A program made the position numbers and the translations under genes. Below are positions 1,328 to 63,757 of a DNA stretch of 64,000 nucleotides, piece by piece. Position 1 is the first letter of the stretch. Each line of letters begins with the position of its first letter. This stretch comes from Shigella phage Sf25, in the sequence record MF327009; one strand, 5' to 3'. Below the pieces are notes generated by a model. It did not search any database, had not been told where the DNA came from, and worked only from the letters and a program-made list of their open reading frames with translations.

Positions 1328-2395
1328 TTATGGATAGGTATAGATGATACCAGTTTCTAAAGCAGTTTTATGAATGATGTATCCATTACGTGATTCTTGA
1401 ACATCAACTTCTGGATAGTCTTTCATCATCTTCTGAAGCGTATAACGATGCAAGTAGTATTTACTATCTGGATCGTCAGTTTTCCAATCTTTACCTTCTT
1501 CGGTCATTTTTTGGATTTCATCCATAACCCACCAACCACACCAGATGTAAGCTGAAGTACGATGTGGAAGAGGATGAACATAAGGTAATTCACCTTCTGG
1601 CTCTGGAGCAACTTTATCAGTTACCTGAACTTGACCTTCCGCCGTAATAGTTTTGCTATCATAATCAGCAGCAGTAACAGTTGCAGTAACTTCAATAGTT
1701 TGACTTCCAATAGATGAGGTATCAATGGTATATACATTAGTTGACCCTTCTACAGGAGAAGAATCTTTCTTCCATGAATACGCAATTTGCGCTTCTTCTG
1801 GAGCATCAGTGACATTAGCAGTAAATGTAGCCGAAGCATCTTGTTGAACGTTAATAGAAGGAGGAGTCAATGTAACCTGTGGATTCATTGTCTTCTTATT
1901 AACTGTTAATGATACTTCATTCGAAGTAACTTCCTTTTCATTGTAATTTTCAGCAGTTACTTGGGCTACGCATTTAATTCTTTTTACTCCACTTGTAGTT
2001 GGAGTATAGCTAAATGTAGAGTTAGTTTCTCCACCAACTTGTGAATCATCTACATACCACTGATACGTAGCAGATGCGCCTGATGGCTGCGAAGCCAAAG
2101 CAGCGGTAAATTCAACAGCTGTTCCGATTACTCCTTCCGGAGGACTATTAGGAGTTACGGCTAAGGTAGTCGTCTGTGTCTTATTTTGAACTGTGATAGT
2201 TGTACTAATTTCAGCTGTTTCGGGACTACTATCGGCAACTTGATTTGTTGCAACTACTTTAATAGTCTTTTGACCGGCAGGTCCTTTTAATACATAACTA
2301 AAAGTTGCTTCAGCTCCATCTTGTGGAACATCATCTACAGTCCAAGCATATGTAATAGGTCCATCTCCAGTTTGACCACTGGGCGTAGCAGTAAA
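1328..2395 (-). CDS. hoc: Hoc (highly immunogenic outer capsid protein, Ig-like domains); 5' end missing, no ATG/GTG in the open frame upstream of TTG 2098
   Basis: Frame open from 2395 to 1328; translation ...FTATPSGQTGDGPITYAWTVDDV...ASATYQWYVDDSQ...ELPYVHPLPHR...IIYTYP matches recalled T4 Hoc from about residue 22; a TAA immediately precedes F22. Confidence 0.8.
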   Translation of the reverse strand, partial: FTATPSGQTGDGPITYAWTVDDVPQDGAEATFSYVLKGPAGQKTIKVVATNQVADSSPETAEISTTITVQNKTQTTTLAVTPNSPPEGVIGTAVEFTAALASQPSGASATYQWYVDDSQVGGETNSTFSYTPTTSGVKRIKCVAQVTAENYNEKEVTSNEVSLTVNKKTMNPQVTLTPPSINVQQDASATFTANVTDAPEEAQIAYSWKKDSSPVEGSTNVYTIDTSSIGSQTIEVTATVTAADYDSKTITAEGQVQVTDKVAPEPEGELPYVHPLPHRTSAYIWCGWWVMDEIQKMTEEGKDWKTDDPDSKYYLHRYTLQKMMKDYPEVDVQESRNGYIIHKTALETGIIYTYP

Positions 2396-3015
2396 TTAAT
2401 GTAATAAATTAAGCTAAATAATGTTTGGTGTGCAGAAGCATGCTCAAAACTAGTTGGGTGAGATTTCCAATCCGGAGTTTCAGCGATCCATTGATAAATC
2501 CACCAAGGAACAGTACAGAATCCTGGATTTTTTCCAATCAACTGAAGATTCGGGCTAAAGTTTTCCGGAAGAGTAAATACAGACGGCTTTTCAGATTCAA
2601 TAATCTCAGCTACAGCCTGTTCGAATTTTTCTTCAACAAAAGGAGTATCTTCAATCAAAACATCGGTATTTTCAGGAATTTTATCCGTTTCTACTACTTC
2701 AATTTTAATGTCAGATTTAACTGGAGAATCAATCAAAAGTGCTGCTTCTGGATTGACTTCTTCATCGTCATATTTTAATCCCTCTGCAGCATCAGCAGCA
2801 TCAATTAAGTCTTTAATAGATAACCCATCAGTCTCTGGCATAGGTTCACTAGCGAGCTTCTGGAGAGCTTCTTCAATATCAACAACGATATTATCAAAAG
2901 ATTTATTCTTTTTGACCTTTATACCAAACTGTTCAGCATATTCAGCTAATTTAGCTTTAGCTTCTTTGTTATCATCAAGAGCCTTCAGCTCTGCAATATA
3001 ATCTTTATCTATCAT
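2335..3015 (-). CDS. inh: Inh-like protein (prohead protease inhibitor); 3' end reads about 20 codons into the hoc region in another frame
   Basis: 226-aa ORF starting MIDKDYIAELKALDDNKEAKAK; position between hoc and uvsW as in T4. Confidence 0.6.
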   Translation of the reverse strand: MIDKDYIAELKALDDNKEAKAKLAEYAEQFGIKVKKNKSFDNIVVDIEEALQKLASEPMPETDGLSIKDLIDAADAAEGLKYDDEEVNPEAALLIDSPVKSDIKIEVVETDKIPENTDVLIEDTPFVEEKFEQAVAEIIESEKPSVFTLPENFSPNLQLIGKNPGFCTVPWWIYQWIAETPDWKSHPTSFEHASAHQTLFSLIYYINLLLRPVVKLEMDLLHMLGL

Positions 3016-13400: not shown

Positions 13401-13454
13401 TCCTCATGTTATGTCAGTAAGATTACTATAACACAACACGAGGGACTTGTAAAC
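13401..13454 (-). promoter_or_regulatory. early-promoter cassette (-35 GTTTAC, -10 TATAGT, RBS); 54 bp identical to 29491-29544
   Basis: Minus-strand GTTTACaag(18 nt)TATAGT then GAGGA; exact copy upstream of alc. Confidence 0.5.
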
Positions 13455-19309: not shown

Positions 19310-19573
19310 TGTTCATCCTTCAGAGTTTGATTTACAGCTCTATTATAAATCAATTCATCATTAAGCTCAGTTAAAGACCTATGATATGTAGTTCTAACTT
19401 TATTTCCTTGCATCCAGTGCTTGATATAAATGAAACCTTGCTCTACACATTTTTAAAAATTCGTTCGTCTTTTTGAGCTCGGAATTCTGGATTGCATCTA
19501 AAGAATTGATTTACGTGACCGTAATCACGCGTAGTATTACCTTCATTTTCATAAATAGTGTGAACGACAAACA

Positions 19574-22465: not shown

Positions 22466-22807
22466 TTATGCTTTCTGCTTACCAAAACGAGAAGCATCAT
22501 CTCGAAGAACCGCACGTGCTCGGCGCATGATCTTCTCAACAGTTTGATTGATACGAGAGTTCGACCCACGCTTGTAGCCAGCGCGTTTAGAATCACCAAC
22601 TTTCTTTTCAACTGCTTTCTTTGCTTTAGCTTGTTTTTTCTGCTTACCAAAACGAGAAGCATCATCTCGAAGAACCGCACGTGCTCGGCGCATGATCTTC
22701 TCAACAGTTTGATTGATACGAGAGTTCGACCCACGCTTGTAGCCAGCGCGTTTAGAATCACCAACTTTCTTTTCAACTGCTTTCTTTGCTTTAGCTTGTT
22801 TTGCCAT
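22466..22807 (-). CDS. small highly basic protein, expanded from about 58 to 113 aa by an in-frame 165-bp tandem duplication
   Basis: Translation MAKQAKAKKAVEKKVGDSKRAGYKRGSNSRINQTVEKIMRRARAVLRDDASRF with the 55-aa block repeated exactly. Confidence 0.55.
   Translation of the reverse strand: MAKQAKAKKAVEKKVGDSKRAGYKRGSNSRINQTVEKIMRRARAVLRDDASRFGKQKKQAKAKKAVEKKVGDSKRAGYKRGSNSRINQTVEKIMRRARAVLRDDASRFGKQKA
22472..22801. repeat. exact tandem duplication, 2 x 165 bp (22472-22636 and 22637-22801), in-frame
   Basis: Identical nucleotide units; boundary ambiguous by 1 bp. Confidence 0.9.
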
Positions 22808-23428: not shown

Positions 23429-23734
23429 CTAACAGGTAACGAATTTTTGTTTAATTTCTTTTGGCTGCTTAAGACCCAGAGCTACAAAAGGGTGTGGAAC
23501 GTTTCGAATTTGACCAACTGGAAGAGAAGTCAAATCACCAACTTCACAGAAACCTTCAGGAACATCAGGACCAACAGAGTGAACTACACACAGTTCAGGA
23601 ACTTCACCTTGAACACGTTTACCGATAATAAGTCCTGATTCTGTAACTTCTTCATCACCGGCTTGTGCAGGTTCAGAAACTAAAATAACATATTCACCGA
23701 CAGCACGAATTGGTAGCTGTTGTACTTCAGACAT
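23429..23734 (-). CDS. 31: gp31 co-chaperonin (GroES-like); ORF is 101 aa versus 111 aa recalled for T4
   Basis: [44 protein letters not shown] matches recalled gp31; ends at ...KFVTC. Confidence 0.8.
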
Positions 23735-25485: not shown

Positions 25486-26006
25486 GTTGATCCCAGCTCC
25501 TTACTTTCAACGTTTTTAACTAATTTGACAGAAACTAATTCGGCATCTTGGGTAATCATTACCGGGCCTTCTTCATACTCTTCAAGATATTCTAGAGCTT
25601 TCTTTTTAGCTTCTTCCTTCGTATCAGTTTGAGCATAGATATAGAACATACAACCAGTAATACCTACTACTTTCCACTTAATTTCTTTATCAGTTTTAAT
25701 TTCAAATTTACTGATAGAGTCATCTTTTTGAACTTCTTCGAAAAAATAATATTCTGACATATAAGTAATTGAAAATAACGGGCTATCTTTATAAGATTCG
25801 CCCATTACATCAACAGCTTTATACCAGCAGTCATCAATTTCACGTTTAATGCTAATAACATTTTTCGCAGAATCTATTTTTACTTTAAATGAATTTTCCC
25901 CAATAAACTTGGCAATTCGTTTATTAGCCCCGCAAGTTTCATTAAAAATATCTTTATATCCAGCTTTAAAGCGATAAACCTTATCTTCTTCAAACCATTT
26001 GCTCAT
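25479..26006 (-). CDS. hypothetical protein (175 aa), cd.3-like
   Basis: ORF track. Confidence 0.45.
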   Translation of the reverse strand: MSKWFEEDKVYRFKAGYKDIFNETCGANKRIAKFIGENSFKVKIDSAKNVISIKREIDDCWYKAVDVMGESYKDSPLFSITYMSEYYFFEEVQKDDSISKFEIKTDKEIKWKVVGITGCMFYIYAQTDTKEEAKKKALEYLEEYEEGPVMITQDAELVSVKLVKNVESKELGSTC

Positions 26007-26068
26007 TTCAATTTCCTCATTTGTTTTGGTAGAGCTATAATATCACAACTCTACCGTAAAGTAAACTG

Positions 26069-28196: not shown

Positions 28197-28639
28197 TTAT
28201 CCTCTTTTAACTCTTGACGATAATAACATATCATAGTTTTCTGATCATGTACATATCGTTTTACATCATTAAGCCAAATGCGAAATTCCTGGGAATCTTC
28301 AAATGGCATACCGACCCAAGCTTTACCATCAATAACTTTAACTTGCCAGGATAGTTTAGCTTCATCGTATGACTTTATTTGTACTGGCCAATTAGGATGA
28401 ACTGTTTCTTTCTTTACTTCTAGAGGCTTTGTCGAACAACCAACTAGAAGACCAATAGATAATATTACCCAAGCTTTACCATCAATAACTTTAACTTGCC
28501 AGGATAGTTTAGCTTCATCGTATGACTTTATTTGTACTGGCCAATTAGGATGAACTGTTTCTTTCTTTACTTCTAGAGGCTTTGTCGAACAACCAACTAG
28601 AAGACCAATAGATAATATTACTGCTGATAGTTTAATCAT
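28187..28639 (-). CDS. putative lipoprotein, expanded from about 99 to 150 aa by an in-frame 153-bp tandem duplication
   Basis: Signal/lipobox-like LSIGLLVGC-S; the 51-aa block ILSIGLLVGCSTKPLEVKK...DGKAWV is repeated exactly, giving two lipobox copies. Confidence 0.5.
   Translation of the reverse strand: MIKLSAVILSIGLLVGCSTKPLEVKKETVHPNWPVQIKSYDEAKLSWQVKVIDGKAWVILSIGLLVGCSTKPLEVKKETVHPNWPVQIKSYDEAKLSWQVKVIDGKAWVGMPFEDSQEFRIWLNDVKRYVHDQKTMICYYRQELKEDKCK
28314..28619. repeat. exact tandem duplication, 2 x 153 bp (28314-28466 and 28467-28619), in-frame
   Basis: Identical nucleotide units. Confidence 0.9.
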
Positions 28640-29490: not shown

Positions 29491-29544
29491 TCCTCATGTT
29501 ATGTCAGTAAGATTACTATAACACAACACGAGGGACTTGTAAAC
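29491..29544 (-). promoter_or_regulatory. early-promoter cassette upstream of alc; 54 bp identical to 13401-13454
   Basis: Same -35/-10/RBS cassette as at 13401-13454. Confidence 0.5.
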
Positions 29545-32383: not shown

Positions 32384-34897
32384 TCATAATTTACAGGATG
32401 AACAATCTTCAGCTTTTGGAGTTTCTATTTCATAATCATCAGTACCAGAACCGTCACGGGTATTATGATAATAGAAATTTTTTCCGCCAAAATACCAAAA
32501 ATATAAAAGGTCATCAATCATTATTGACATTGGAACCTTTCCTTTTGGAAAAATCTGCGGGTCATAATATGTATTAGCTGAAGCTGATTGACATACCCAT
32601 TTCAGCATAATAGCTACTTGCGTAAGATAAGGTTTATTGCCTTTCTTAGCTAATTTCCACGTATAATCATAGAGGTCTATGTTATGCTCAATATTGGGCA
32701 CGACTTGATTAAAGGAACCCTCTTTTGATTCTTTAACAGAGACTGGTCCACGTGGAGGCTCGATACCGTTTGTACTGTTAGAAACTTGGGAAGATGACTC
32801 ACATGGCATAAGTGCTGATAATGTGCTATTACGGATGCCAAAGAGCTTAAGGTCTTCCCGCAGCGACGACCAGTCACAAACGTATTTTGGAGCTGCGATT
32901 TGGTCAATCTTTTTATTGTACCAGTCGATAGGTAATTCGCCTCGAGACCAACGAGTGTCTGAATAATATTCGCAAGGTCCTTTTTCTTTGGCGAGCTTAA
33001 TGGATGCTTTAATGAGTCCATACTGTAATCTCTCAAATAGTTCATGTGTTAAATCGTTAGCATCTTCATAAGAAGCAAAATTACTTGCCAGCCAAGCTGC
33101 ATAGTTAGTAACACCTACACCAAGATTTCGACGCTTTTTAGCTTTTTCTGCTTCAGGAACTGGATATCCTTGGTAATCCAAAAGATTATCAAGAGCACGA
33201 ACTTGGACTTCTGCCAATTCATTAATTTTATCTTGGTCTTGCCAATCAAAGTTATCTAACACAAATGCAGATAACGTACACAATCCAATTTCAGCATCAG
33301 GACTATTCACATCATTTGTTGGAATAGCAATTTCACAGCACAAGTTGCTCTGACGAATAGGTGCCTTTTCACGAATAAACGGAGTATAGTTATTCGTATT
33401 ATCTATGAACTGTACATAAATCCTTGCTGTTCCTGAGCGTTCAGTCATGAGCAATTCAAATAGTTCACGGGCTTTAATACGCTTTTTACGAATATTAGGG
33501 TCTTTTTCTGCTGCTTCGTATAATTCACGGAAACGGTCTTGGTCTTTAAAATAAGAATAATAAAGCTCGCCACCCATTTCATGCGGACTGAACAAAGTAA
33601 TGTAATCGTTCTTTCCGAATCGTTCCATCATCAAATCATTCAGCTGAACACCATAATCCATATGACGGATACGGTTTTCTTCTACACCTTTGTTATTTTT
33701 CAAAACGAGAAGATTTTCAACTTCCAAATGCCAAATAGGATAATAAGCAGTAGCAGCGCCGCCACGAATTCCACCCTGTGAGCATGATTTAACAGCAGTC
33801 TGAAAATGTTTCCAAAAAGGAATAACACCAGTATGGCGTACTTCACCTGTGCCAATCTTAGAACCTTCGGCACGAATCATACCAACGTTAATACCAATTC
33901 CATAATCCATATGACGGATACGGTTTTCTTCTACACCTTTGTTATTTTTCAAAACGAGAAGATTTTCAACTTCCAAATGCCAAATAGGATAATAAGCAGT
34001 AGCAGCGCCGCCACGAATTCCACCCTGTGAGCATGATTTAACAGCAGTCTGAAAATGTTTCCAAAAAGGAATAACACCAGTATGGCGTACTTCACCTGTG
34101 CCAATCTTAGAACCTTCGGCACGAATCATACCAACGTTAATACCAATTCCAGCGCGTTTGGAGATATATTCAACAATTGAAGCAGAAGCCTTATTGATAG
34201 ACTTTAATGAATCACCTGCTTCAATAACAACGCATGAACTAAACTGCCGAGTTGGAGTACGGCAACCAGCCATAATAGGAGTTGGCAGTGAAATCTGTCG
34301 AGTAGATACTGCTTCATAAAAACGGATAACGTGTTTTAATCTATCAACAGGTTCATCTTGATGCAATGCCATTCCAATAGTCATAAATGCAAACTGTGGA
34401 GTTTCATAAATTTGACCAGTGGTTTTATCTTTAACTAGATATTTTTCTTTTAATTGCATCGCCCCGGAATAAGTAAATTCCATATCCCGCTCGTGCTTAA
34501 TTTTTGATTCTAAAAATGTAATTTCTTCGGCAGAATATTTTGACAACAATTCAGGGTCATATTTACCTTCATTTACACAGTAAGAAATGTGGTCAATAAA
34601 TGAACGTGGTTCATACTGCCCATAAACATGCTTACGAAGAGCGAACATTAAACAGCGTGCAGCTACATATTGATAATCAGGCTCTTCAACTGAAATAGAA
34701 TTCGCAGCAGCCTTAATTACAATGGTTTGAATGTCATCAGTTGTCATTCCATCACGGAGATATGATTTAATATTTTCATATAATTCATAAGGATCTACAG
34801 ATGTTCCTTCAGCTGCCCAAGATAAAACTTTAATAATTTTTTGCGGGTCAAAGCTCTGAGAAACACCACTACTTTTGATAACATTAATTAATTGCAT
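32384..34897 (-). CDS. nrdA: ribonucleotide reductase large subunit carrying an in-frame 249-bp tandem duplication (837 aa versus 754 aa expected)
   Basis: MQLINVIKSSGVSQSFDPQKI...; 83-aa block GIGINVGMIRAEGSKIG...NRIRHMDY repeated exactly. Confidence 0.9.
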   Translation of the reverse strand: MQLINVIKSSGVSQSFDPQKIIKVLSWAAEGTSVDPYELYENIKSYLRDGMTTDDIQTIVIKAAANSISVEEPDYQYVAARCLMFALRKHVYGQYEPRSFIDHISYCVNEGKYDPELLSKYSAEEITFLESKIKHERDMEFTYSGAMQLKEKYLVKDKTTGQIYETPQFAFMTIGMALHQDEPVDRLKHVIRFYEAVSTRQISLPTPIMAGCRTPTRQFSSCVVIEAGDSLKSINKASASIVEYISKRAGIGINVGMIRAEGSKIGTGEVRHTGVIPFWKHFQTAVKSCSQGGIRGGAATAYYPIWHLEVENLLVLKNNKGVEENRIRHMDYGIGINVGMIRAEGSKIGTGEVRHTGVIPFWKHFQTAVKSCSQGGIRGGAATAYYPIWHLEVENLLVLKNNKGVEENRIRHMDYGVQLNDLMMERFGKNDYITLFSPHEMGGELYYSYFKDQDRFRELYEAAEKDPNIRKKRIKARELFELLMTERSGTARIYVQFIDNTNNYTPFIREKAPIRQSNLCCEIAIPTNDVNSPDAEIGLCTLSAFVLDNFDWQDQDKINELAEVQVRALDNLLDYQGYPVPEAEKAKKRRNLGVGVTNYAAWLASNFASYEDANDLTHELFERLQYGLIKASIKLAKEKGPCEYYSDTRWSRGELPIDWYNKKIDQIAAPKYVCDWSSLREDLKLFGIRNSTLSALMPCESSSQVSNSTNGIEPPRGPVSVKESKEGSFNQVVPNIEHNIDLYDYTWKLAKKGNKPYLTQVAIMLKWVCQSASANTYYDPQIFPKGKVPMSIMIDDLLYFWYFGGKNFYYHNTRDGSGTDDYEIETPKAEDCSSCKL
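33651..34148. repeat. exact tandem duplication, 2 x 249 bp (33651-33899 and 33900-34148), in-frame within nrdA
   Basis: Identical nucleotide units; boundary ambiguous by 3 bp. Confidence 0.9.
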
Positions 34898-34915: not shown

Positions 34916-35271
34916 TCGTCTTTAAACAATCGGTTAACTATATGAGCTATTATATCACCATGACACGGCTTTGGTTTACATGTGCATCCTAGCCTCATTC
35001 CACGTAAAGGCTCTAAATGTGCTTTAGTTATTTCTCCGGATTTAATTCGACGTATAAAATCTTTTTTGAATAATTCAATGGCAGCCTCCCGGCTCGTCTT
35101 TAAACAATCGGTTAACTATATGAGCTATTATATCACCATGACACGGCTTTGGTTTACATGTGCATCCTAGCCTCATTCCACGTAAAGGCTCTAAATGTGC
35201 TTTAGTTATTTCTCCGGATTTAATTCGACGTATAAAATCTTTTTTGAATAATTCAATGGCAGCCTCCCGGC
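34916..35271. repeat. exact tandem duplication, 2 x 178 bp (34916-35093 and 35094-35271), just upstream of the nrdA start
   Basis: Identical units; unit length not a multiple of 3; replaces the 3' end of the upstream ORF. Confidence 0.9.
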
Positions 35272-35392
35272 TGCCAGCATCTTTACCGACGTAATTTCCC
35301 CAAAATGTACCACGGTGAATATTAACATCAAAGTCGGATTTATATTTATTCACTACCCGGCATAGACGGCCCGCGCGGTTGTAGGTGTTCAT
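35075..35392 (-). CDS. hypothetical protein (nrdA.1-like); C-terminus altered by the 178-bp duplication
   Basis: ORF track; without the second copy the frame would end ...NRLFKDDFQVEDLCN overlapping the nrdA ATG. Confidence 0.45.
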
Positions 35393-38440: not shown

Positions 38441-38887
38441 CTACTTTTTGAAAGTTTTTCGCAAAAGTTCAATGATTTCATCTACATTGTTTTCGTCAAC
38501 AATGCAGTGAATTTTTGTTACGCCAGAAACCTTGTCTATGACTTCATCTACATTGTTTTCGTCAACAATGCAGTGAATTTTTGTTACGCCAGAAACCTTG
38601 TCTTTGACTTCATCTTCTTCAGAAGTCGGTTCTTTATACTCACGAAAACAATGAAATTCATCTTCGCAAATTTCTAAAAGTCTATCTTTGAGGTAAAAAT
38701 GCTTTCCATTTGCGCATTCAATGTGTTTTACTGCTTTATATCCATTAGCGACGGAAACTTCTTTAACTTCAAACCATCCGCCATTATCTCGAATAGCTTT
38801 AACGATTGATGAATTAGAACGTGGGCTATAATTAATAAATGTATCAATAAGTCTTGGAACAAGTTCATACTTTTTGCCAATATACAT
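38441..38887 (-). CDS. hypothetical protein (148 aa) with an internal 22-aa tandem repeat
   Basis: ORF track; ...VKDKVSGVTKIHCIVDENNVDE VIDKVSGVTKIHCIVDENNVDE.... Confidence 0.45.
   Translation of the reverse strand: MYIGKKYELVPRLIDTFINYSPRSNSSIVKAIRDNGGWFEVKEVSVANGYKAVKHIECANGKHFYLKDRLLEICEDEFHCFREYKEPTSEEDEVKDKVSGVTKIHCIVDENNVDEVIDKVSGVTKIHCIVDENNVDEIIELLRKTFKK
38472..38615. repeat. near-exact tandem repeat, 66-bp unit, about 2.2 copies, 2 mismatches
   Basis: Position i matches i+66 across 38472-38549 except at 38476 and 38538. Confidence 0.8.
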
Positions 38888-40212: not shown

Positions 40213-40310
40213 TTTTATTTCCTTTTTAATTTAATTAACAGTTGGTGCTATGACGATGTATGACCTCATAGCTGGTCAGTGAGATAATTATAATCTATTT
40301 ATAATAAGCA
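40213..40310 (-). promoter_or_regulatory. gene 32 5' leader: AU-rich translational operator (UUAAAUUAAAAAGGAAAUAAAA-AUG) and a TATAAATA late-promoter match at 40296-40303
   Basis: Sequence read directly; gp32 autoregulation through such an operator is established for T4. Confidence 0.5.
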
Positions 40311-40311
40311 A

Positions 40312-40809
40312 TTAATACTTGCAAGATTTCACAGTTTCAATAAAAACTTTTTTAGCTTCCTGTGAATCAATATTTAAAATTTTTCTATAAGCCTTTAACT
40401 TTATAGAATAATTATTCCAAACTAAATTATCAGTTTGTTGATCATGTTTATCAATTATATTTAAAAACGAATCAAGCAAGATAAACGTCTCAAACGAAAT
40501 TATGTTCGATTGCAGAAGTTTAAAAATATAACTTGACTGAACTTTTGGATTATACTCAAAAATTTCTTTAAAAGCAGAAACTTCAACTTTTTTACTAAAA
40601 TAATAAATGTTGCGAATATCTTCTTCAAACTTAAATTTAATTTGCTTTAAGCGTCCGATATATTCACGATAAAACACAAGTGCATCAGCGTCAGAGATGT
40701 CACCAATCCAAGCATCTTGGTTAGCAACCAAATTGCTTATAAAGATTAAAGCAAGTTCCTTTAATTTATATTTTTCTGATAACTTCTGGAAAAAATACTT
40801 ATCCCTTCG
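40312..40809 (-). CDS. 59: gp59 helicase loader, C-terminal 165 residues only (about residues 53-217), fused in-frame to gene 33
   Basis: RRDKYFFQKLSEKYKLKELALIFISNLVANQDAW...ETVKSCKY matches recalled T4 gp59; the N-terminal about 52 residues are absent. Confidence 0.75.
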   Translation of the reverse strand, partial: RRDKYFFQKLSEKYKLKELALIFISNLVANQDAWIGDISDADALVFYREYIGRLKQIKFKFEEDIRNIYYFSKKVEVSAFKEIFEYNPKVQSSYIFKLLQSNIISFETFILLDSFLNIIDKHDQQTDNLVWNNYSIKLKAYRKILNIDSQEAKKVFIETVKSCKY

Positions 40810-41127
40810 ATTAGTTTTTTCACAACGAACAACAGAAGGACGTAAAAGATTTTCGTCGATAGCTTCTGACTGAATTTTTTCAATTATACCCGAAGGAATA
40901 AATTTAGCAAATTGAGTTTCAGGAATAGAATTTTCTTCTAAGAACGCTGTTGTAGCTTCAAGATAACTCATTCCAAACTCTTCTACCATTTTTTCAATAA
41001 TAAATCCATTTTCTTGGCGGTCAAGAAGCTTTGCTATTTCATCCTTTTCTTTCTTAATTGAAAGTTCTTTTTCTGAAAGACCGGTCTCATCGACCGGACG
41101 AATATCATTTAGAGAAAACTGTGTCAT
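40810..41127 (-). CDS. 33: gp33 late-transcription co-activator, residues 1-106, lacking its last about 6 codons and stop, fused in-frame to gene 59
   Basis: MTQFSLNDIRPVDETGLSEKELSIKKEKDEIAKLLDRQENGFII...VVRCEKTN continues directly into the gp59 sequence. Confidence 0.75.
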
Positions 41128-41374
41128 AAAGTTCAACTACCTCTTCAGTTTCAGCTTCAAACACATCACGGTTATCTTTATGATACAAAGCTAACAGACG
41201 ATTAAACATCTTACCATCAACGCCAAGTTCATCTTTGGCACGAATTCGAATATCTTTAATCAATTCATTATAACCAGAAATTTTCAGTTTATGATCAGAT
41301 GCTTCTTTAATAAATTTAGCTAAGTCTTCGCCATGGATAGCTTCATCAAATTCAACCATTTCTTTTTTAGCCAT
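41105..41374 (-). CDS. dsbA: DsbA double-stranded DNA-binding protein
   Basis: 89-aa ORF; position between rnh and 33 as in T4. Confidence 0.75.
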   Translation of the reverse strand: MAKKEMVEFDEAIHGEDLAKFIKEASDHKLKISGYNELIKDIRIRAKDELGVDGKMFNRLLALYHKDNRDVFEAETEEVVELYDTVFSK

Positions 41375-47460: not shown

Positions 47461-48126
47461 ATGGCTGATTTAAAAGTAGGTTCAACAACTGGAGGCTCTG
47501 TCATTTGGCATCAAGGAAATTTTCCATTGAATCCAGCCGGTGACGATGTACTCTATAAATCATTTAAAATATATACAGAATATAATAAACCACAAGCAGC
47601 TGATAACGATTTCGTTTCTAAAGCTAATGGTGGTACTTACGCTTCAAAGGTAACATTTAACGGTGGCGTGCAAATACCATATGCTATAAACAATACAAAC
47701 CAAAGCGGTATTTTTCCTGGTAATGGTGATGCTGCTACTTTTGCTACAGCAAATATTGATATTGTTTCATGGTATGGCATTGGTTTTAAATCATCACAAG
47801 GATCTGCAGGTAGAACTGTAGTAATTAATGCACGTAATGGCGATATTAGCACAAAAGGCGTTGTATCTGCTTCAGGACAAGTAAGAAGCGATATGACTGC
47901 TCCAGTTGCAGCAAATGATCTCACAAGAAAAGATTATGTTGATGGAGCAATAAATATTGTTACGGATAACGCAAATTCACGTGTATTGCGTAGAGGCGAT
48001 ACTATGACTGGAAATTTAACAGCTCCAAACTTTTTCTCACAGAATCCAGCGTCTCAACCTTCACATGTTCCACGATTTGATCAAATTGTTATTAAGGATT
48101 CTGTTCAAGATTTCGGCTATTATTAA
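47461..48126 (+). CDS. 36: long tail fibre distal connector gp36
   Basis: 221-aa ORF; length matches T4 gp36. Confidence 0.9.
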   Translation: MADLKVGSTTGGSVIWHQGNFPLNPAGDDVLYKSFKIYTEYNKPQAADNDFVSKANGGTYASKVTFNGGVQIPYAINNTNQSGIFPGNGDAATFATANIDIVSWYGIGFKSSQGSAGRTVVINARNGDISTKGVVSASGQVRSDMTAPVAANDLTRKDYVDGAINIVTDNANSRVLRRGDTMTGNLTAPNFFSQNPASQPSHVPRFDQIVIKDSVQDFGYY

Positions 48127-48134
48127 GAGGACTT

Positions 48135-51100
48135 ATGGCTACTTTAAAACAAATACAATTTAAAAGAAGCAAAACTGCAGGTCAACGTCCTGCTGCTTCA
48201 GTATTAGCCGAAGGTGAATTGGCTATAAACTTAAAAGACCGTACTCTTTTTACTAAAGATGACTCGGGAAATATTATTGATTTAAGCATTTCTGCCGGTG
48301 GTAACATTAGTGGAAATATCACTCAAAATGGTGATTATTTACAAAACGGCACGTATAATCTTAATGGAAATCAGTTTGTTTATGCAGGAAAGTATATTGA
48401 ATTCTTGCCAAAAACTGCTGGAAATGGTGCTTGGGCAAATCAGCACACAAATAAAGCTCCAATTTTCACCGATTTGAGTTCAACTACTTCAACTTCTGAA
48501 TATCATCCGCTAATTAAACAACGTTATAAAGATGGAACGTTTTCATTAGGGACTTTAGTTTCTGAAGGCTCAATGAAGATACACTATATCGATGAAACTG
48601 GCACTTCAAAATATTGGACTTTCCGACGTGATGGTGGTTTTGTTGTTGATAGTGGTAGTTTAACTGTTACTGCTGGAAACATATCTGCTTCAGGCAATAT
48701 TAATTCGGCATCAGGGGTTGTTTCAGCTCCTCAAATTAATACAAAAACCATTGTTTTAGATACAAAAGCATTTGGACAATATGATTCGCAGTCATTAGTT
48801 CAGTATGTTTATCCTGGCACTGGCGAAACAAACGGTATAAACTATCTTCGTAAAGTTCGCGCAAAATCAGGTGGTACAATTTATCATGAAATAGCTTCAG
48901 CTCAAAGTGGAAAAAGCGATGAAATTTCGTGGTGGACTGGAAATACAGCCGTTAATAAACAAATGGGTCTTCGTAATGATGGTGCAATGGTATTACGTCG
49001 TTCACTTGCTATTGGCACAATTACTACAGATGAAAACGTAAATAACTATGGATCTGCTGGAGCAATGGGAGAAAAATACATTGTTCTTGGAGATGCGTCA
49101 ACTGGACTAGCTTATAAAAAGACAGGAGTTTATGACTTAGTTGGTAGTGGTTTATCTGTTGCTTCTATCACTCCCGACAGTTTTCGTAGTACCCGTAAAG
49201 CAATTTTTGGACGTTCTGAAGACCAAGGCGGTACATGGCTTCTTCCTGGTCAAAACGCTGCTCTTCTTTCAGTTCGTACAGATATTGATCAAAATAATAA
49301 CGGTGATGGTCAAACTCATATTGGATATAATAGTAACAGCAAGTTTTATCATTATTTTAGAGGCAGAGGCCGAATGGCTGTTGGAATGGCTGAAGGTCTT
49401 ATTGTTGAGCCTGGAATTTTAGATATTAAAACTGGTTCAAATACTGTTTCTATTAGAGCTGATGGCGGAATTTCATCTACTCAGCGTCTTTCATTGCAGA
49501 ATGGTATATTTTTATCTTCTGACGGAAATAACAACGGTATATCGTTTAAAGCTTCTAGCAGTATAGATGGAACTAAAACTCTTAATTGGGATGCTGGTAC
49601 TCGTGCAGGTCAAAACAAAAATACAGTAATTTTAAAAGCATGGGGAAATTCATTTAATACAAGTGGTGGAACTGATAGACATACTGTATTTGAAGTTTCT
49701 GATTCGCAAGGATACTACTTTTATGCTCAACGTACTACCCCTGCATCCGGTCAAACAGTAGGTCCTATTAATTTTAAATTTAATGGTACTGTAGAAACCG
49801 GTCATATCAATGGATTAGGTAATATTACTTTATCTGGGGCAGTTATAGCAGATTCTGCTAATATTAAAGGACCGCTAAAAATATCTAATGCTAATACAGC
49901 TGATGCTTTTAGAATATGGAACGCTGAATATGGAGCCATTTTCCGTCGTTCAGAAACATCATTGCATATTATTCCTACACTTAAAGATGCAGGGGAAAAT
50001 GGTGGAATAAGTAATCTTCGCCCATTAAGTATTGATCTTTCAAACGGATTTGTGCAAATGCATCATTCTCTTTCTGTGGGGAATACAGTAAGAACGAATG
50101 GATTGTTTGCTGTGGATACTTCAGCTGCTCTTGTTGCAATTAACAGATGTTCCTATTGTGAAACAAAGATACGTTCAAGGGAATAGCACCTATTCATTAG
50201 GTACTTTAATTAATGGTGGTGATTTCCGTTTACATTACCATGAAGGCGGTGACAGTTCTTCAACAGGTGCAGTTATAAAAGATATTTCCTGGGAATTTAA
50301 ACGTAATGGTGATTTCTATTCGCCAGGTCGTTTACGTACAGGAAATATCTATATTGGAACTGATGGTAATATCACGGGTGGTTCTGGTAACTTTGCTAAC
50401 TTGAATACAACTTTAAACCGTAAAGTTAATTCTGGTTTTATTACTTATGGAGCAACTGCAGGTTGGTACAAGTTTGCAACAGTAACAATGCCTCAAGCTA
50501 CATCAACCGTTTCAATTACAGTCACTGGCGGAAATGGATTTAATTCTGGATCATTTAATCAGTGTGCAATTTCTGAAATTGTTCTTCGTACAGGAAACAA
50601 TAATCCTCTGGTGATACATATGACATTTATGTTAATATGGGAACATATGCTAATCAGTTGATATTTAACTATAGTTCTGTTGATAATGCCACAGTTCAAA
50701 TTATTGGCGCATTCAGTTCAGCTCAAAATCCTGTTGATGCATTGCCAGAAACATATGTTAAAGGTCAGGTAGCAGATGTATTGACTAACTTAGTTGATTC
50801 TGGAAAAACGAAGCGTTTTGTTGCTGAATCTGAAATAGCTATTAATAATCAAACTGGATTACGTATTACGAGTAATGGTGATAAATCTGGTTCAAATTCA
50901 GTATTATTCAGAAATGATGGATCAGCGTTTTATATTCTTTTAACAGATAAAAACGCAGCAGATGGAAATACGACTGCCACAGAAGGAGATTGGAATGGTA
51001 AACGTCCTTTCCAAATTAATATGACTTCTGGTGAAGTAACATTCGGAAATAATATTAATATTTCTGGAAACGGAAGCATTACTTGGACAAAAGCCGGAGC

Positions 51101-51770
51101 AAACCCTAGAAATATGAGAATATTTCATGCAGGTGATGCTTCTCGTGGTAACCGTATTGAAATCGCAGATGATACTAATTATATTGCTTACTTTGAAAAA
51201 ACTCCAGGTGGAGCTAACCGCTTTGTAGTTAATGGTGCTACTGTAGCTGGTGTTAATCAAATGAATTCATTTGGTATTAACATCAATAACGCGCTTGGTG
51301 GAAATAGTATAGCATTTGGTGATAATGACACGGGTATTAAGCAAAACGGCGATGGATTATTAGACATTTATGCGAATGGTGTGCAAACGTTCCGTTTCCA
51401 AAACGGTGATTTGTACTCATATAAAAATATAAATGCCCCAAACGTTTATATTCGTTCTGATATTCGCTTAAAATCTAATTTCAAACCTATCGAAAATGCA
51501 CTTGATAAAGTTGAAAAACTCAATGGTGTCATTTATGATAAAGCTGAATATATCGGTGGAGAGGCAATTGAAACTGAAGCGGGTATTGTGGCTCAAACGT
51601 TACAAGACGTTTTACCAGAAGCCGTCCGTGAAACAGAAGACAGCAAGGGTAATAAAATACTCACTGTTTCTTCTCAAGCCCAGATTGCTCTTCTGGTTGA
51701 AGCTGTGAAAACGCTTTCTTCTCGTGTAAAAGAACTTGAATCTAAACTTCTTGAATCTAAACTTATGTAA
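48135..51770 (+). CDS. 37: long tail fibre distal subunit gp37, T2-type with C-terminal intramolecular chaperone domain; reading frame broken twice (about 50140-50160 and 50604-50615)
   Basis: Three consecutive ORFs in three frames (48135-50186, 50098-50661, 50637-51770), all gp37-like: [37 protein letters not shown]...; [34 protein letters not shown]; C-terminal SDIRLKSNF...VKELESKL. Confidence 0.8.
51456..51767 (+). other. peptidase S74-type intramolecular chaperone / self-cleavage domain at the gp37 C-terminus
   Basis: Motif RSDIRLK followed by a coiled-coil-like tail; domain assignment by recollection of the family. Confidence 0.55.
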
Positions 51771-51800: not shown

Positions 51801-52498
51801 ATGGCAATTGTAGGTGTTCCTGGCTGGATTGGTGAATCTGCCGTGAATGAAACAGGACAGCGTTGGATGGATGCTGCAATGAGAGCAGTCCGTGTTTCAG
51901 TTCCCGGTTGGATGAGCTCAATGGCCGGACAATCTAAAGAAGTATATTATAGCATTGGTGCTAGTAATTCTTATAATAAAGATACATTAATAAACTGAAT
52001 GCATACGTGACACTTAATATCAATTCAGGCGTGCATGTTTGGGGCCGTGGCGGGAATGGCGGAAATAACTCTGCCGGTGGAGCAGGAGGAACTGCAATAA
52101 ATAATGGAATTGGAACTAGATTGCGTATTAACAACAATGGTGTTATCGCAGGAGGCGGTGGCGGCGGTGGAGGCGGATATTATTCTCCTTTTTCACAAAT
52201 GAAATTGACTTTTGGCGGTGGCGGCGGTCGTCCATTTGGTGCTGCTGGCGGGTCTGCTAATATGGAACAGGGCGCTACTGCTGGTACTATTTCTGCACCT
52301 GGTAAAGGGTCTGTCAATGGTATCTATAATGGCGGGAATGGCGGTGATGCTGGTGCCGCAGGTGGTAAATGTAATATTCGTGGGCAAGGATCAGAATATA
52401 ACGGCGGTGCGGCCGGTAAAGCTGTTACTGGTAATGCTCCAACTTGGACTAAGGTTGGTACAATATATGGCCCTCTGATATTCTATTTGGTGTTCTAG
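51801..52498 (+). CDS. 38: gp38 receptor-recognising adhesin (T2-type, glycine-rich islands); split by a frameshift near 51980-51996
   Basis: ORF 51801-51998 (MAIVGVPGWIGESAVNETGQRWM...) and ORF 52007-52498 in another frame with GGGGGGGGG islands; the second frame is open back to 51980. Confidence 0.75.
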
Positions 52499-53100
52499 AT
52501 CGCTTGTTCAAAGATAACGCTACCGGGAAAGTTCTTGCTTCCCGGGTAGCTGTCGTAATTCTTTTATTTATGATGGCGATTGTTTGGTATAGGGGAGATA
52601 GTTTCTTTGAGTACTATAAGCAATCAAAGTATGAAACATACAGTGAAATTATTGAAAAGGAAAGAAATGCACGCTTTGAATCTGTCGCCCTGGAACAACT
52701 CCAGATAGTTCATATATCATCTGAGGCAGACTTTAGTGCGGTGTATTCTTTCCGCCCTAAAAACTTAAACTATTTTGTTGATATTATAGCATACGAAGGA
52801 AGATTACCTTCAACAATAACTGAAAAATCACTTGGAGGATATCCTGTTGATAAAACTATGGATGAATATATAGTTCATTTAAATGGACGTCATTATTATT
52901 CTGACTCAAAATTTGCTTTTTTACCAACTAAAAAGCCTACTCCCGAAATAAACTACATGTACAGTTGTCCATATTTTAATTTGGATAATATCTATGCTGG
53001 AACGATAACCATGTACTGGTATAGAAATGATCATATAAGTAATGACCGCCTTGAATCAATATGTGCTCAGGCGGCCAGAATATTAGGAAGGGCTAAATAA
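52467..53100 (+). CDS. t: holin T; the ATG at 52467 is out of frame with the body (in-frame body 52453-53100, first canonical start TTG 52504)
   Basis: Body (WPS)DILFGVLDRLFKDNATGKVLASRVAVVILLFMMAIVWYRGDSFFEYY matches recalled T4 T residues 11-218; ATG GCC is followed by a stop in its own frame. Confidence 0.75.
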
Positions 53101-57620: not shown

Positions 57621-57680
57621 CTAAAGCTTGAAATTATTACGATAGAACTGCATCACATGTTCGTTATGGAAATTACTCAT
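57621..57680 (-). CDS. stp: Stp-like peptide (19 aa; T4 Stp is 26 aa)
   Basis: Manual translation [19 protein letters not shown]; first 16 residues match recalled T4 Stp. Confidence 0.4.
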   Translation of the reverse strand: MSNFHNEHVMQFYRNNFKL

Positions 57681-58529: not shown

Positions 58530-58718
58530 TTATTTTACACCATTCCAAATTGTTTCAACTACAGATTTTAAGCCATTTTGATGAATGTCCATTCCGACTA
58601 CCGCCATCAAATAGATTCCAACTACGTTTAACATATCAATCATTAAAACGATTGGGAATATACTCAAAACTACTAGTATTATAACTACATTCCATATAGC
58701 TTTAATAATCTTTTTCAT
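58530..58718 (-). CDS. small membrane protein (about 62 aa from MKKIIKAIWNVVIIL)
   Basis: ORF track 58530-58853, trimmed to the internal Met preceded by GGAGG and an early promoter at 58746-58776. Confidence 0.4.
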   Translation of the reverse strand: MKKIIKAIWNVVIILVVLSIFPIVLMIDMLNVVGIYLMAVVGMDIHQNGLKSVVETIWNGVK

Positions 58719-61330: not shown

Positions 61331-63757
61331 TTAGGCCGCAAGGGCCTTCATAGTTTTAGCGATTTGAGAAACTTCATCATCACTTAAAGAGTTGCGATAA
61401 CCGATGAAGTCGGAAACAATACGGAATTTCTTGGTAAACTCAGCAACCATTTTATCACTGTTTTTTGAAGCATTATTTGATAATACATCAAAAAGATTAG
61501 TTACTGTCCAGATGTCATGACCGATGGTACCTTTTCCACCGTTGAAATATACGCCCCGCAATGAACTAACTATATTAGCGAGTCGTGTATATTCTTCAGA
61601 AACTTCATCTGTACTGAAGTACTTCATCATAAAATCTAGTTCAGGATACTTGATAATTTTATCAATATATCGTTGAGCTGAACTTGAATAACCTACGTAC
61701 TTATCATAATCTACATCATCAAAAGCATCTACATATAAATCACGCAGAGTTTCAAAAATACATTGGCACTGACCGAGTTCTTTTACCTTTTTCTGCAAAA
61801 GCGGACGAATAACATAAAATTCATTAATGCCAATAAGATTAGCCATACGAATCAAAATATTCATAGATGGATGACAAAGAGATGTAGTACCATCCATAGA
61901 GAAAATATCAGAACGATGCATATACGCTACATAACCAGTAATTTCATCTGCTTCTGATGTGAGCGTAAACAGTTCCTCTTTTTCCCATCGCCCATCTTTA
62001 ATTTCAAACTTAAATGCTGTAGCAGCTTTAGGACGAGGAGCTTTACTTTTAACTACCTTTGGAATATAGCTTTTAACTAAAGCTTCAATTTCTGACAAAT
62101 AATGAATGTTAACTTCATCACTTTCAAACATCGCCATAATATCAGGAAGTAAATCAATCTGCGATTCTACTTCTGGATTAATAAACAGAAGACGCTCATT
62201 GTGATGAATATTCAAAGTGTTATTAAATTCACTATCATCTAACGCATGTGCTAATCCACGAACAATATTAACACGATTTTTAATATTATCAATAACGATA
62301 TTAATTTTTGTTGTATTAATACCAAACAGACGATAACTTGATGCAACGGCTGAAGTTTCATGACTTTGCTTAATGCGTTTCAGTCGAGGGTCAAGATTTA
62401 CTTCATACACAACTCCTGCATTGCATAACTTACTGTCAGGTTCAAACATGCTCTGCATCTTTTTATATGACAGATTTTTAGTCGTGAATTTGACTGAATT
62501 ACTAATCATATAATCTCGAGCAGAATATCCCATCTTCATCAATTCACGATATGTGTGACGAGGAGATGTAGATTCTTTAAATCGTTTTACATCTTCATTG
62601 AATGCCTTCTCACTAAGCTCTTTAACACGCTCAATAATATTTTTACGAGTACGATCATCTAGTGAAAGAGCTTCGCGTGATGGAGCAATATCAAGTGAAC
62701 CCATTGGAAACTTAATGTAATTCACTTCATTGCGAATGCTTAGCCAGTTACGGTCTCTAATAACACCATCGATAGGATAAACAATACCGCCATAGATAGC
62801 ATATAATCCACCACGATCAGGCCAGTATCTTTCTGGATTTACACCATAATAATCATCAAAATCAGGAAAATAATCAATTTCAATAATATTTTTACGAGTA
62901 CGATCATCTAGTGAAAGAGCTTCGCGTGATGGAGCAATATCAAGTGAACCCATTGGAAACTTAATGTAATTCACTTCATTGCGAATGCTTAGCCAGTTAC
63001 GGTCTCTAATAACACCATCGATAGGATAAACAATACCGCCATAGATAGCATATAATCCACCACGATCAGGCCAGTATCTTTCTGGATTTACACCATAATA
63101 ATCATCAAAATCAGGAAAATAATCAATTTCGCGGTCAAGACCATTAATGATAGCCAAATCTTTGAACGGTCGCATGATATAAGAAACTTCATAAGCAAAG
63201 TTTCTAAAGTCTTTTTCTTCAACTGGAACTACGATTTCAATACCAGTTTTATCATCTGGACCCATTTCTTTTACGAATGTAGGTTTAATCTGTGGGCCAT
63301 CACCATCCATGTAAGCTACATAACCACGAATTTCACCTTTATGATACGAAGTAATACTAAACGTATCAGTATAACTAAACGGAGATTTAGAACCTAAACC
63401 AAATCCGCCAATAAAGTCATTAGATTCAGCCTTAGATGAACTGAAGTATGAATTATACAGCCCAGGAGAATTATCATCACCCTGAATATCAAAATCACTC
63501 ATACCCGGACCAAAATCTCGACAAACAAATCGTGGATCTAATCGTCCTGGAACTTGAATGATAAATTTTTCAGGATTTCCATTAAGTGCATGAGCATCAA
63601 TCATGTTAGTAATCAATTCACGGACTACTGCGCGAATCTTGTTTGTATACAAATCAGATGACAGAATTTTAAATACTTTAGGATTTGCTGCGATGCTAAA
63701 TGCTTTTGATTTAGAACCATTGCCAAGAATTGTTTCTTTTTCAGTGGTGATAATCAT
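61331..63757 (-). CDS. rIIA: rIIA protein carrying an in-frame 249-bp tandem duplication (808 aa versus 725 aa expected)
   Basis: [20 protein letters not shown]...; 83-aa block [24 protein letters not shown]...TRKNIIE repeated exactly. Confidence 0.9.
62631..63128. repeat. exact tandem duplication, 2 x 249 bp (62631-62879 and 62880-63128), in-frame within rIIA
   Basis: Identical nucleotide units. Confidence 0.9.

Follow-up and report, generated by a model that had tools for sequence, protein, structure and literature searches.

The split adhesin gene 38 of Shigella phage Sf25 is one of fifteen clean lesions in its sequence record and probably an artefact of sequence reconstruction

In the deposited record of Shigella phage Sf25 (MF327009), the T2-type adhesin gene 38 is interrupted by a clean 103-nt deletion, one of 15 lesions specific to the 64,000-nt stretch that was analysed (hereafter the window). 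We regard this split as an artefact of sequence reconstruction rather than as phage biology, with a probability of about 0.8. Because the lesions are numerous, recent to judge from their identical duplicate copies, blind to reading frame and gene importance, without the direct repeats that slippage usually leaves, and unique among the public sequences searched, the window as written does not represent the genome of a replicating phage; taken together, the 15 lesions cannot be reconciled with a replicating, viable phage. The same 15 lesions, with gene 37 broken twice among them, make a host-range or any other biological reading of the split unlikely.

The window is a segment of a Tequatrovirus (T4-like) genome, with Shigella phage Sf24 as its best overall relative (96-99.7%). 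Its tail-fibre region comprises g36 (47461-48126), g37 (48135-51770), g38 (51801-52498) and the holin gene t (to 53100), beyond which asiA, arn, motA and gene 52 follow on the opposite strand. A first-pass annotation had described gene 38 as a T2-type adhesin in two halves lying in different frames, and this description is borne out to the nucleotide. By direct reading of the sequence, the N-terminal fragment (51801-51998, plus strand; attachment domain and linker) starts with ATG at 51801 and runs for 65 codons to a TGA at 51996-51998. The glycine-rich body occupies a second frame, the one in phase with 51998 and 52007; its closest upstream stop is the TAA at 51977-51979, such that the frame is open back to 51980, as had been annotated, and the ORF as listed spans 52007-52498. 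The two ORFs share 19 nt (51980-51998). Searches against Pfam matched PF21721 (Gp38_N) to residues 1-42 of the N-terminal piece (E = 3e-19) and PF05268 (GP38) to the body piece at profile positions 59-216 of 218 (E = 3e-42), with profile positions 1-58 missing; both pieces are thus identified as gp38.

Two of the domains expected of gp38 are present. The N-terminal attachment domain, which docks onto the tip of gp37, is retained, with residues 1-65 identical to those of JK1 and Sf24. Also retained are the glycine-rich motifs alternating with hypervariable segments that constitute the polyglycine-II sandwich domain, carried by the body fragment (Asn101-Gly258; 51998-52498, plus strand); its residues 101-258 are identical to JK1 and align to the solved gp38 structure of Salmonella phage S16 (PDB 6F45_D). 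This fragment lacks a start codon and ribosome-binding site of its own, is out of frame with the N-terminus, and ends in eight foreign codons (PLIFYLVF) read inside t. The beta-helix domain is incomplete, with residues 66-99 and the last three residues deleted. In a published domain scheme (PMC12032242), the C-terminus and the stretch that follows the linker jointly make up the beta-helix domain; since residues 66-99 follow the attachment domain and linker in that scheme, they belong to the beta-helix domain and represent its first part. The position between g37 and t is as expected for gene 38, but no single continuous ORF of ~260 aa is found there, the gene being divided between 51801-51998 and 51998-52498 in different frames. 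With this sequence the locus could yield no functional adhesin, just the 65-residue attachment-domain fragment.

The nature of the interruption was resolved by comparison with the closest relatives in this region, JK1, slur02/04 and teqsoen, which are 99.2-99.6% identical (JK1, 99.6% over a 1-kb stretch). With a 1,001-nt query around the site, each of the best 30 matches comprised four pieces distributed over about 1,160 nt, and the alignment to JK1 differs in three places: 15 nt are duplicated at the end of g37, and deletions of 103 and 72 nt lie at 51997|51998 and 52470|52471, respectively. The 103-nt deletion (51997..51998, plus strand; 0 nt of microhomology) removes gene 38 positions 198-300, i.e. 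34 codons plus 1 nt, corresponding to residues 66-99 and one further nucleotide. The TGA that terminates the N-terminal ORF exists because the deletion junction itself creates it, joining the TG of Trp66 to the A of Asn101. The residues lost, WIKAQGSTPVVITITGNIVSQSTGVPCLDFPSSLT, align with the S16 structure, and the event is therefore a loss in the window rather than an insertion in its relatives. The first-pass annotation had attributed the split to an indel of 1-2 nt; such a change would formally fuse the two ORFs, but the actual cause is the 103-nt deletion. It also missed the lesion at 52470|52471 and drew no link to the double break in g37 or to the set of 15 similar lesions across the window.

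The second deletion at this locus (52470..52471, plus strand; 1 nt of positional ambiguity) takes three terminal codons and the stop from gene 38, all 32 nt of the intergenic region, which includes the Shine-Dalgarno sequence AAGGAGG, and codons 1-9 of t. The truncated holin gene (52471-53100, plus strand) consequently retains codons 10-218, matching PF11031 at profile positions 18-233, without a start codon or ribosome-binding site. Both deletions are apparent against every reference with a T2-type gene 38 at this position, namely Sf24, teqsoen, PinkRuby and loci L009-L012; in one further locus, L013, they merge into a single unaligned gap. When 70-nt queries were placed across each junction, every match to a phage record fell into two pieces, separated in that record by 103 or 72 additional bases, and neither junction was present in any of 50,697 phage records. 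Furthermore, IMG/VR contained neither the g38/t junction nor a 34-mer spanning the gene 38 junction, and this 34-mer was also missing from JGI metagenomes and GTDB genomes. An exact-protein look-up across 153 billion gene positions found none of the broken products (gp38 fragments, the nrdA duplication product and the gp33-gp59 fusion) on record, except for two unrelated contigs that end after gp38 codon 65, although the intact gp34 likewise had no exact protein match.

Among relatives, gp38 is one continuous ORF of 261 aa in five T2-type loci and in all four annotated relatives. The T2-type gp38 proteins of Tequatrovirus (JK1 QXN68337, slur02/04, teqsoen, Sf24 AUV63110) occupy the same place between g37 and t and share the PF21721 and PF05268 domains, and the portions retained in the window are 100% identical to them over the N-terminal 65 residues and about 99-100% identical over the body (101-258). 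In contrast to these proteins, the window copy lacks residues 66-99 and the last three, is divided between two frames with a body that has no start, and cannot yield the single monomer of ~261 aa that defines the family.

Gene 37, encoding the distal long tail fibre (48135-51770, plus strand), is likewise broken, into three frame pieces, by deletions of 173 nt at 50146|50147 and 70 nt at 50606|50607 that together leave 50147-50606 out of frame. Two further features of this gene were observed. Within the bracketed segment, a 184-nt patch (50175-50358) shares only ~71% identity with each of the seven g37 references, and these references agree with one another at 97% or more there; substitutions in the segment are biased toward third codon positions (31:15:8) and its frame is open. 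The patch resembles a tract acquired from an unsampled lineage by natural recombination, and lies in the distal fibre's receptor-proximal part. At the gp37 C-terminus, a 15-nt in-frame tandem duplication (51735-51749; LESKL) was considered as a member of the lesion set and rejected as a natural polymorphism, being shared with ENA contig ERZ17808082 NODE_42.

To place these breaks in context, the whole window was compared with Sf24, teqsoen, PinkRuby, TadeuszReichstein, JK1, and six further loci with identical gp36. This comparison identified 15 window-specific lesions in 64 kb, comprising six tandem duplications and nine deletions of 70-249 nt each, all absent from every one of the 2-10 references covering each site. 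The duplications, with copies 100% identical in all six cases, affect the 24.3 / hoc 3' region (923-1326; 202-nt unit), gene 30.9 (22472-22802; 165-nt period), pseT.2, annotated as o-spanin in relatives (28314-28621; 153-nt period), nrdA (33651-34151; 249-nt period), nrdA.1 (34916-35272; 178-nt period) and rIIA (62631-63130; 249-nt period). In nrdA and rIIA the duplication adds 83 codons, producing in nrdA an ORF of 837 aa compared with 754, and in nrdA.1 it shifts the frame.

The deletions measure, in order along the window, 133, 72, 173, 173, 70, 103, 72, about 134 and 130 nt, of which the two in g37, the one in g38 and the one at the g38/t boundary are described above; the other five lie in minus-strand genes. 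At 2395..2396, 133 nt comprising the start of hoc (codons 1-21) and the C-terminus and stop of inh are removed, and at 23431..23432 gene 31, which encodes the co-chaperonin, loses its stop and the ~10 preceding codons to a 72-nt deletion. The 173-nt deletion at 40809..40810 removes the C-terminal residues of gp33 together with its stop (three codons by protein match) and codons 1-52 of gp59. At this site gp33 is fused in frame to gp59 from residue 53, generating a chimeric ORF of 274 aa (40312-41136, minus strand) found nowhere on record. The N-terminal ~32 codons of ac are lost in the deletion of about 134 nt at 57630..57633, and 130 nt are missing across the ndd.2a / ndd.4 boundary at 58625..58626. 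The genes struck thus comprise gene 31, 33/59, g37 (twice), g38, t, hoc/inh, nrdA, nrdA.1, rIIA, ac, the ndd region, 30.9 and pseT.2.

Outside these sites the sequence is of high quality. A gene-by-gene check found about 85 other genes intact, mostly at 98-100% amino-acid identity, and broken genes map to the 15 lesions, barring homopolymer deletions in 30.1 and 30.2, Sf24-side or in-frame length variants, and natural presence/absence differences (segG, a 521-nt ORF and Sf24 gp113). As a control, perfect tandem duplications were sought in 335 kb of relatives, where one was found, the Sf24 gp121/gp122 repeat, against six in the 64 kb of the window. Errors typical of noisy long reads were considered as a source of the broken genes and rejected, given the number of intact genes and the presence of only two 1-nt homopolymer frameshifts. 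These two frameshifts, at 19449 (T6 to T5) and 19824 (A6 to A5) relative to Sf24 and TadeuszReichstein, split 30.1 and 30.2, respectively, and could represent sequencing errors or the natural pseudogenisation of non-essential genes.

The lesions bear no mark of selection on frame or gene importance. Lengths divisible by three account for 6 of the 15, equal to the chance expectation, and microhomology, scorable at eight of the deletion junctions, amounts to 0-2 nt. The lesions are paired, with 7 of 14 gaps shorter than 1.4 kb (p about 0.04), and tend to bracket the variable cassettes hoc, g37 and g38. Of the inter-breakpoint segments, the four with the greatest divergence from Sf24 are short and bracketed: hoc (91.4%), 30.9-rIII (93.6%), g37 (88.3%) and g38 (92.4%). 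Most duplications, on the other hand, lie in ordinary conserved genes and not at variable cassettes. A strain chimera, in which the closest relative would switch exactly at the breakpoints, was also considered and largely rejected: JK1 remains about 99.6% identical on either side of 51997 once the 15-nt indel is discounted, and the divergent patch in g37 lies inside its bracketed segment and not at the edges. All that survives of this idea is the weaker association of short bracketed segments with the highest divergence.

Several findings match what is expected when separately obtained pieces of sequence are joined, namely identical duplicate copies, lesions confined to the window, placement blind to gene function, and enrichment where assemblies break. 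Under such a scheme, pieces would have been concatenated in such a way that unmerged overlaps became perfect duplications and gaps closed without sequence became deletions; the gp38 hypervariable region (51998-52470) and other variable cassettes would have entered as short separate pieces. A natural genome altered in silico would bear identical marks and would be inseparable from stitching, with the same verdict that the split is not biological. Two independent metagenome contigs, Logan ERR15093704_1526 and ENA ERZ10551885 k141_16600, end exactly after gp38 codon 65; assemblies therefore do fragment at the boundary between the conserved and variable parts of gene 38, which these contig ends mark as a place where assemblies of mixed T4-like populations break repeatedly. 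Assembly and finishing artefacts in other deposited phage genomes resemble the lesions in the window in their perfect duplications, clean deletions, absence of microhomology, high base accuracy, and clustering at hypervariable loci. The window differs from these in its unusually high density of lesions (15 in 64 kb) and in overlap sizes that vary while some recur.

Two aspects of lesion size fit stitching less readily. De Bruijn assemblers would generate overlaps of constant k, whereas the duplications range from 153 to 249 nt. In addition, the sizes 249 (both 83-codon in-frame duplications, in nrdA and rIIA), 173 and 72 nt each occur twice (simulated p about 0.02 under uniform sizes); simple stitching does not account for these repeated equal sizes, which hint at another generating process.

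The principal alternative is that the lesions exist in a real DNA molecule, either a defective or non-viable T4-like genome, carried for example by a co-infecting wild type, or a laboratory construct or mutant lacking functional gp38. In its favour are the high base-level quality and cleanness of the lesions, their clustering around tail-fibre and host-range cassettes, and the capacity of T-even phages to generate both deletions and tandem duplications through illegitimate recombination. Nonetheless we consider this explanation unlikely. The 15 lesions would disable gp31, gp33/gp59, g37, g38 and t simultaneously, and in T4 genetics the loss of most of these is individually lethal; no sign of selection on frame or gene importance is seen. 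Short direct repeats are usual at the end points of slippage and illegitimate recombination, but the deletion junctions offer microhomology of 2 nt at most, and neither end-point direct repeats nor the sparing of essential genes was found. Furthermore, the duplicate copies have not diverged at all, and every junction tested is without a public counterpart. A more elaborate biological scenario, which we rate as very improbable, invokes a real, multiply rearranged and replication-defective T4-like genome kept by complementation from co-infecting relatives in the manner of a defective-interfering genome, with the hoc, g37 and g38 cassettes swapped in through imprecise, homology-independent joining.

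There is scarcely any probability left for a frameshift of 1-2 nt in an otherwise complete gene 38, whether as a sequencing error, a true point frameshift, or a programmed frameshift or bypass yielding the full adhesin. The 19-nt overlap of the two ORFs and the two genuine homopolymer frameshifts elsewhere in the window lend it some plausibility, but the site contains no homopolymer, 103 nt are missing from the alignment, and a fused product would still fall short by 34 conserved, structurally ordered residues. T4 does use programmed recoding, including the ribosomal bypass of gene 60 and programmed frameshifts, in which a stop likewise cuts the coding sequence and reading resumes downstream in a different register. 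Unlike those cases, the interruption in gene 38 is conserved in no relative, full coding information is not present on both sides because 34 codons are physically absent, and the stop codon simply results from the joining of the deletion end points; the relatives examined with T2-type gp38 all have a continuous ORF, and thus no conserved recoding signal. The notion that the 103 nt represent an insertion in relatives, such as a mobile element or intron, with the window preserving an ancestral shorter gene, is suggested by the length difference alone and deserves next to no credence, as 103 is not a multiple of three and the frame breaks without the segment, which encodes residues aligned with the S16 structure and with GP38 profile positions 1-58 and is present in every relative checked.

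If the lesions were real, the phage would lack its adhesin, distal tail fibre and holin, and would be unable to infect or lyse. With an artefact of sequence reconstruction as the preferred reading, the practical value of these findings is that of a quality flag with little biological weight: annotation, host-range prediction or pseudogene calls based on the record would be misleading at gp38, g37, t, gp31, gp33/gp59, hoc, nrdA and rIIA. JK1, slur or teqsoen, with the retained residues all identical, allow the intact adhesin to be deduced.

A number of other features of the window and its relatives were also noted. An in-frame duplication of 66 nt in frd.2 (38469-38615) has no counterpart in any reference aligned across it; it was rejected as a member of the artefact set since its copies have diverged (96% identical) and are flanked by 15-nt repeats. 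In contrast to the six perfect duplications, it probably arose by natural slippage. A 521-nt segment at 25490-26011 is present here and in PinkRuby and missing from Sf24 and TadeuszReichstein, and the segG homing endonuclease gene, located between 32 and 59 in Sf24 and TadeuszReichstein, is missing here (40276-40310); both are natural gene-content differences. In the Sf24 record (MF327008), a perfect 265-nt tandem duplication at about 92090-92620 (33567-34096 of locus L002), annotated as gp121 and gp122, is lacking in the window and in teqsoen and may itself be an assembly artefact in a deposited genome. Finally, a candidate reciprocal swap of 54 nt between 13401-13454 and 29491-29544 was rejected, as the two sites, 16 kb apart and upstream of alt.-3 and alc, carry a natural intergenic repeat, TCCTCATGTTATGTCAGTAAGATTACTATAACACAACACGAGGGACTTGTAAAC, that is 100% identical between them and kept at both positions in Sf24; this repeat may be a promoter or regulatory element.
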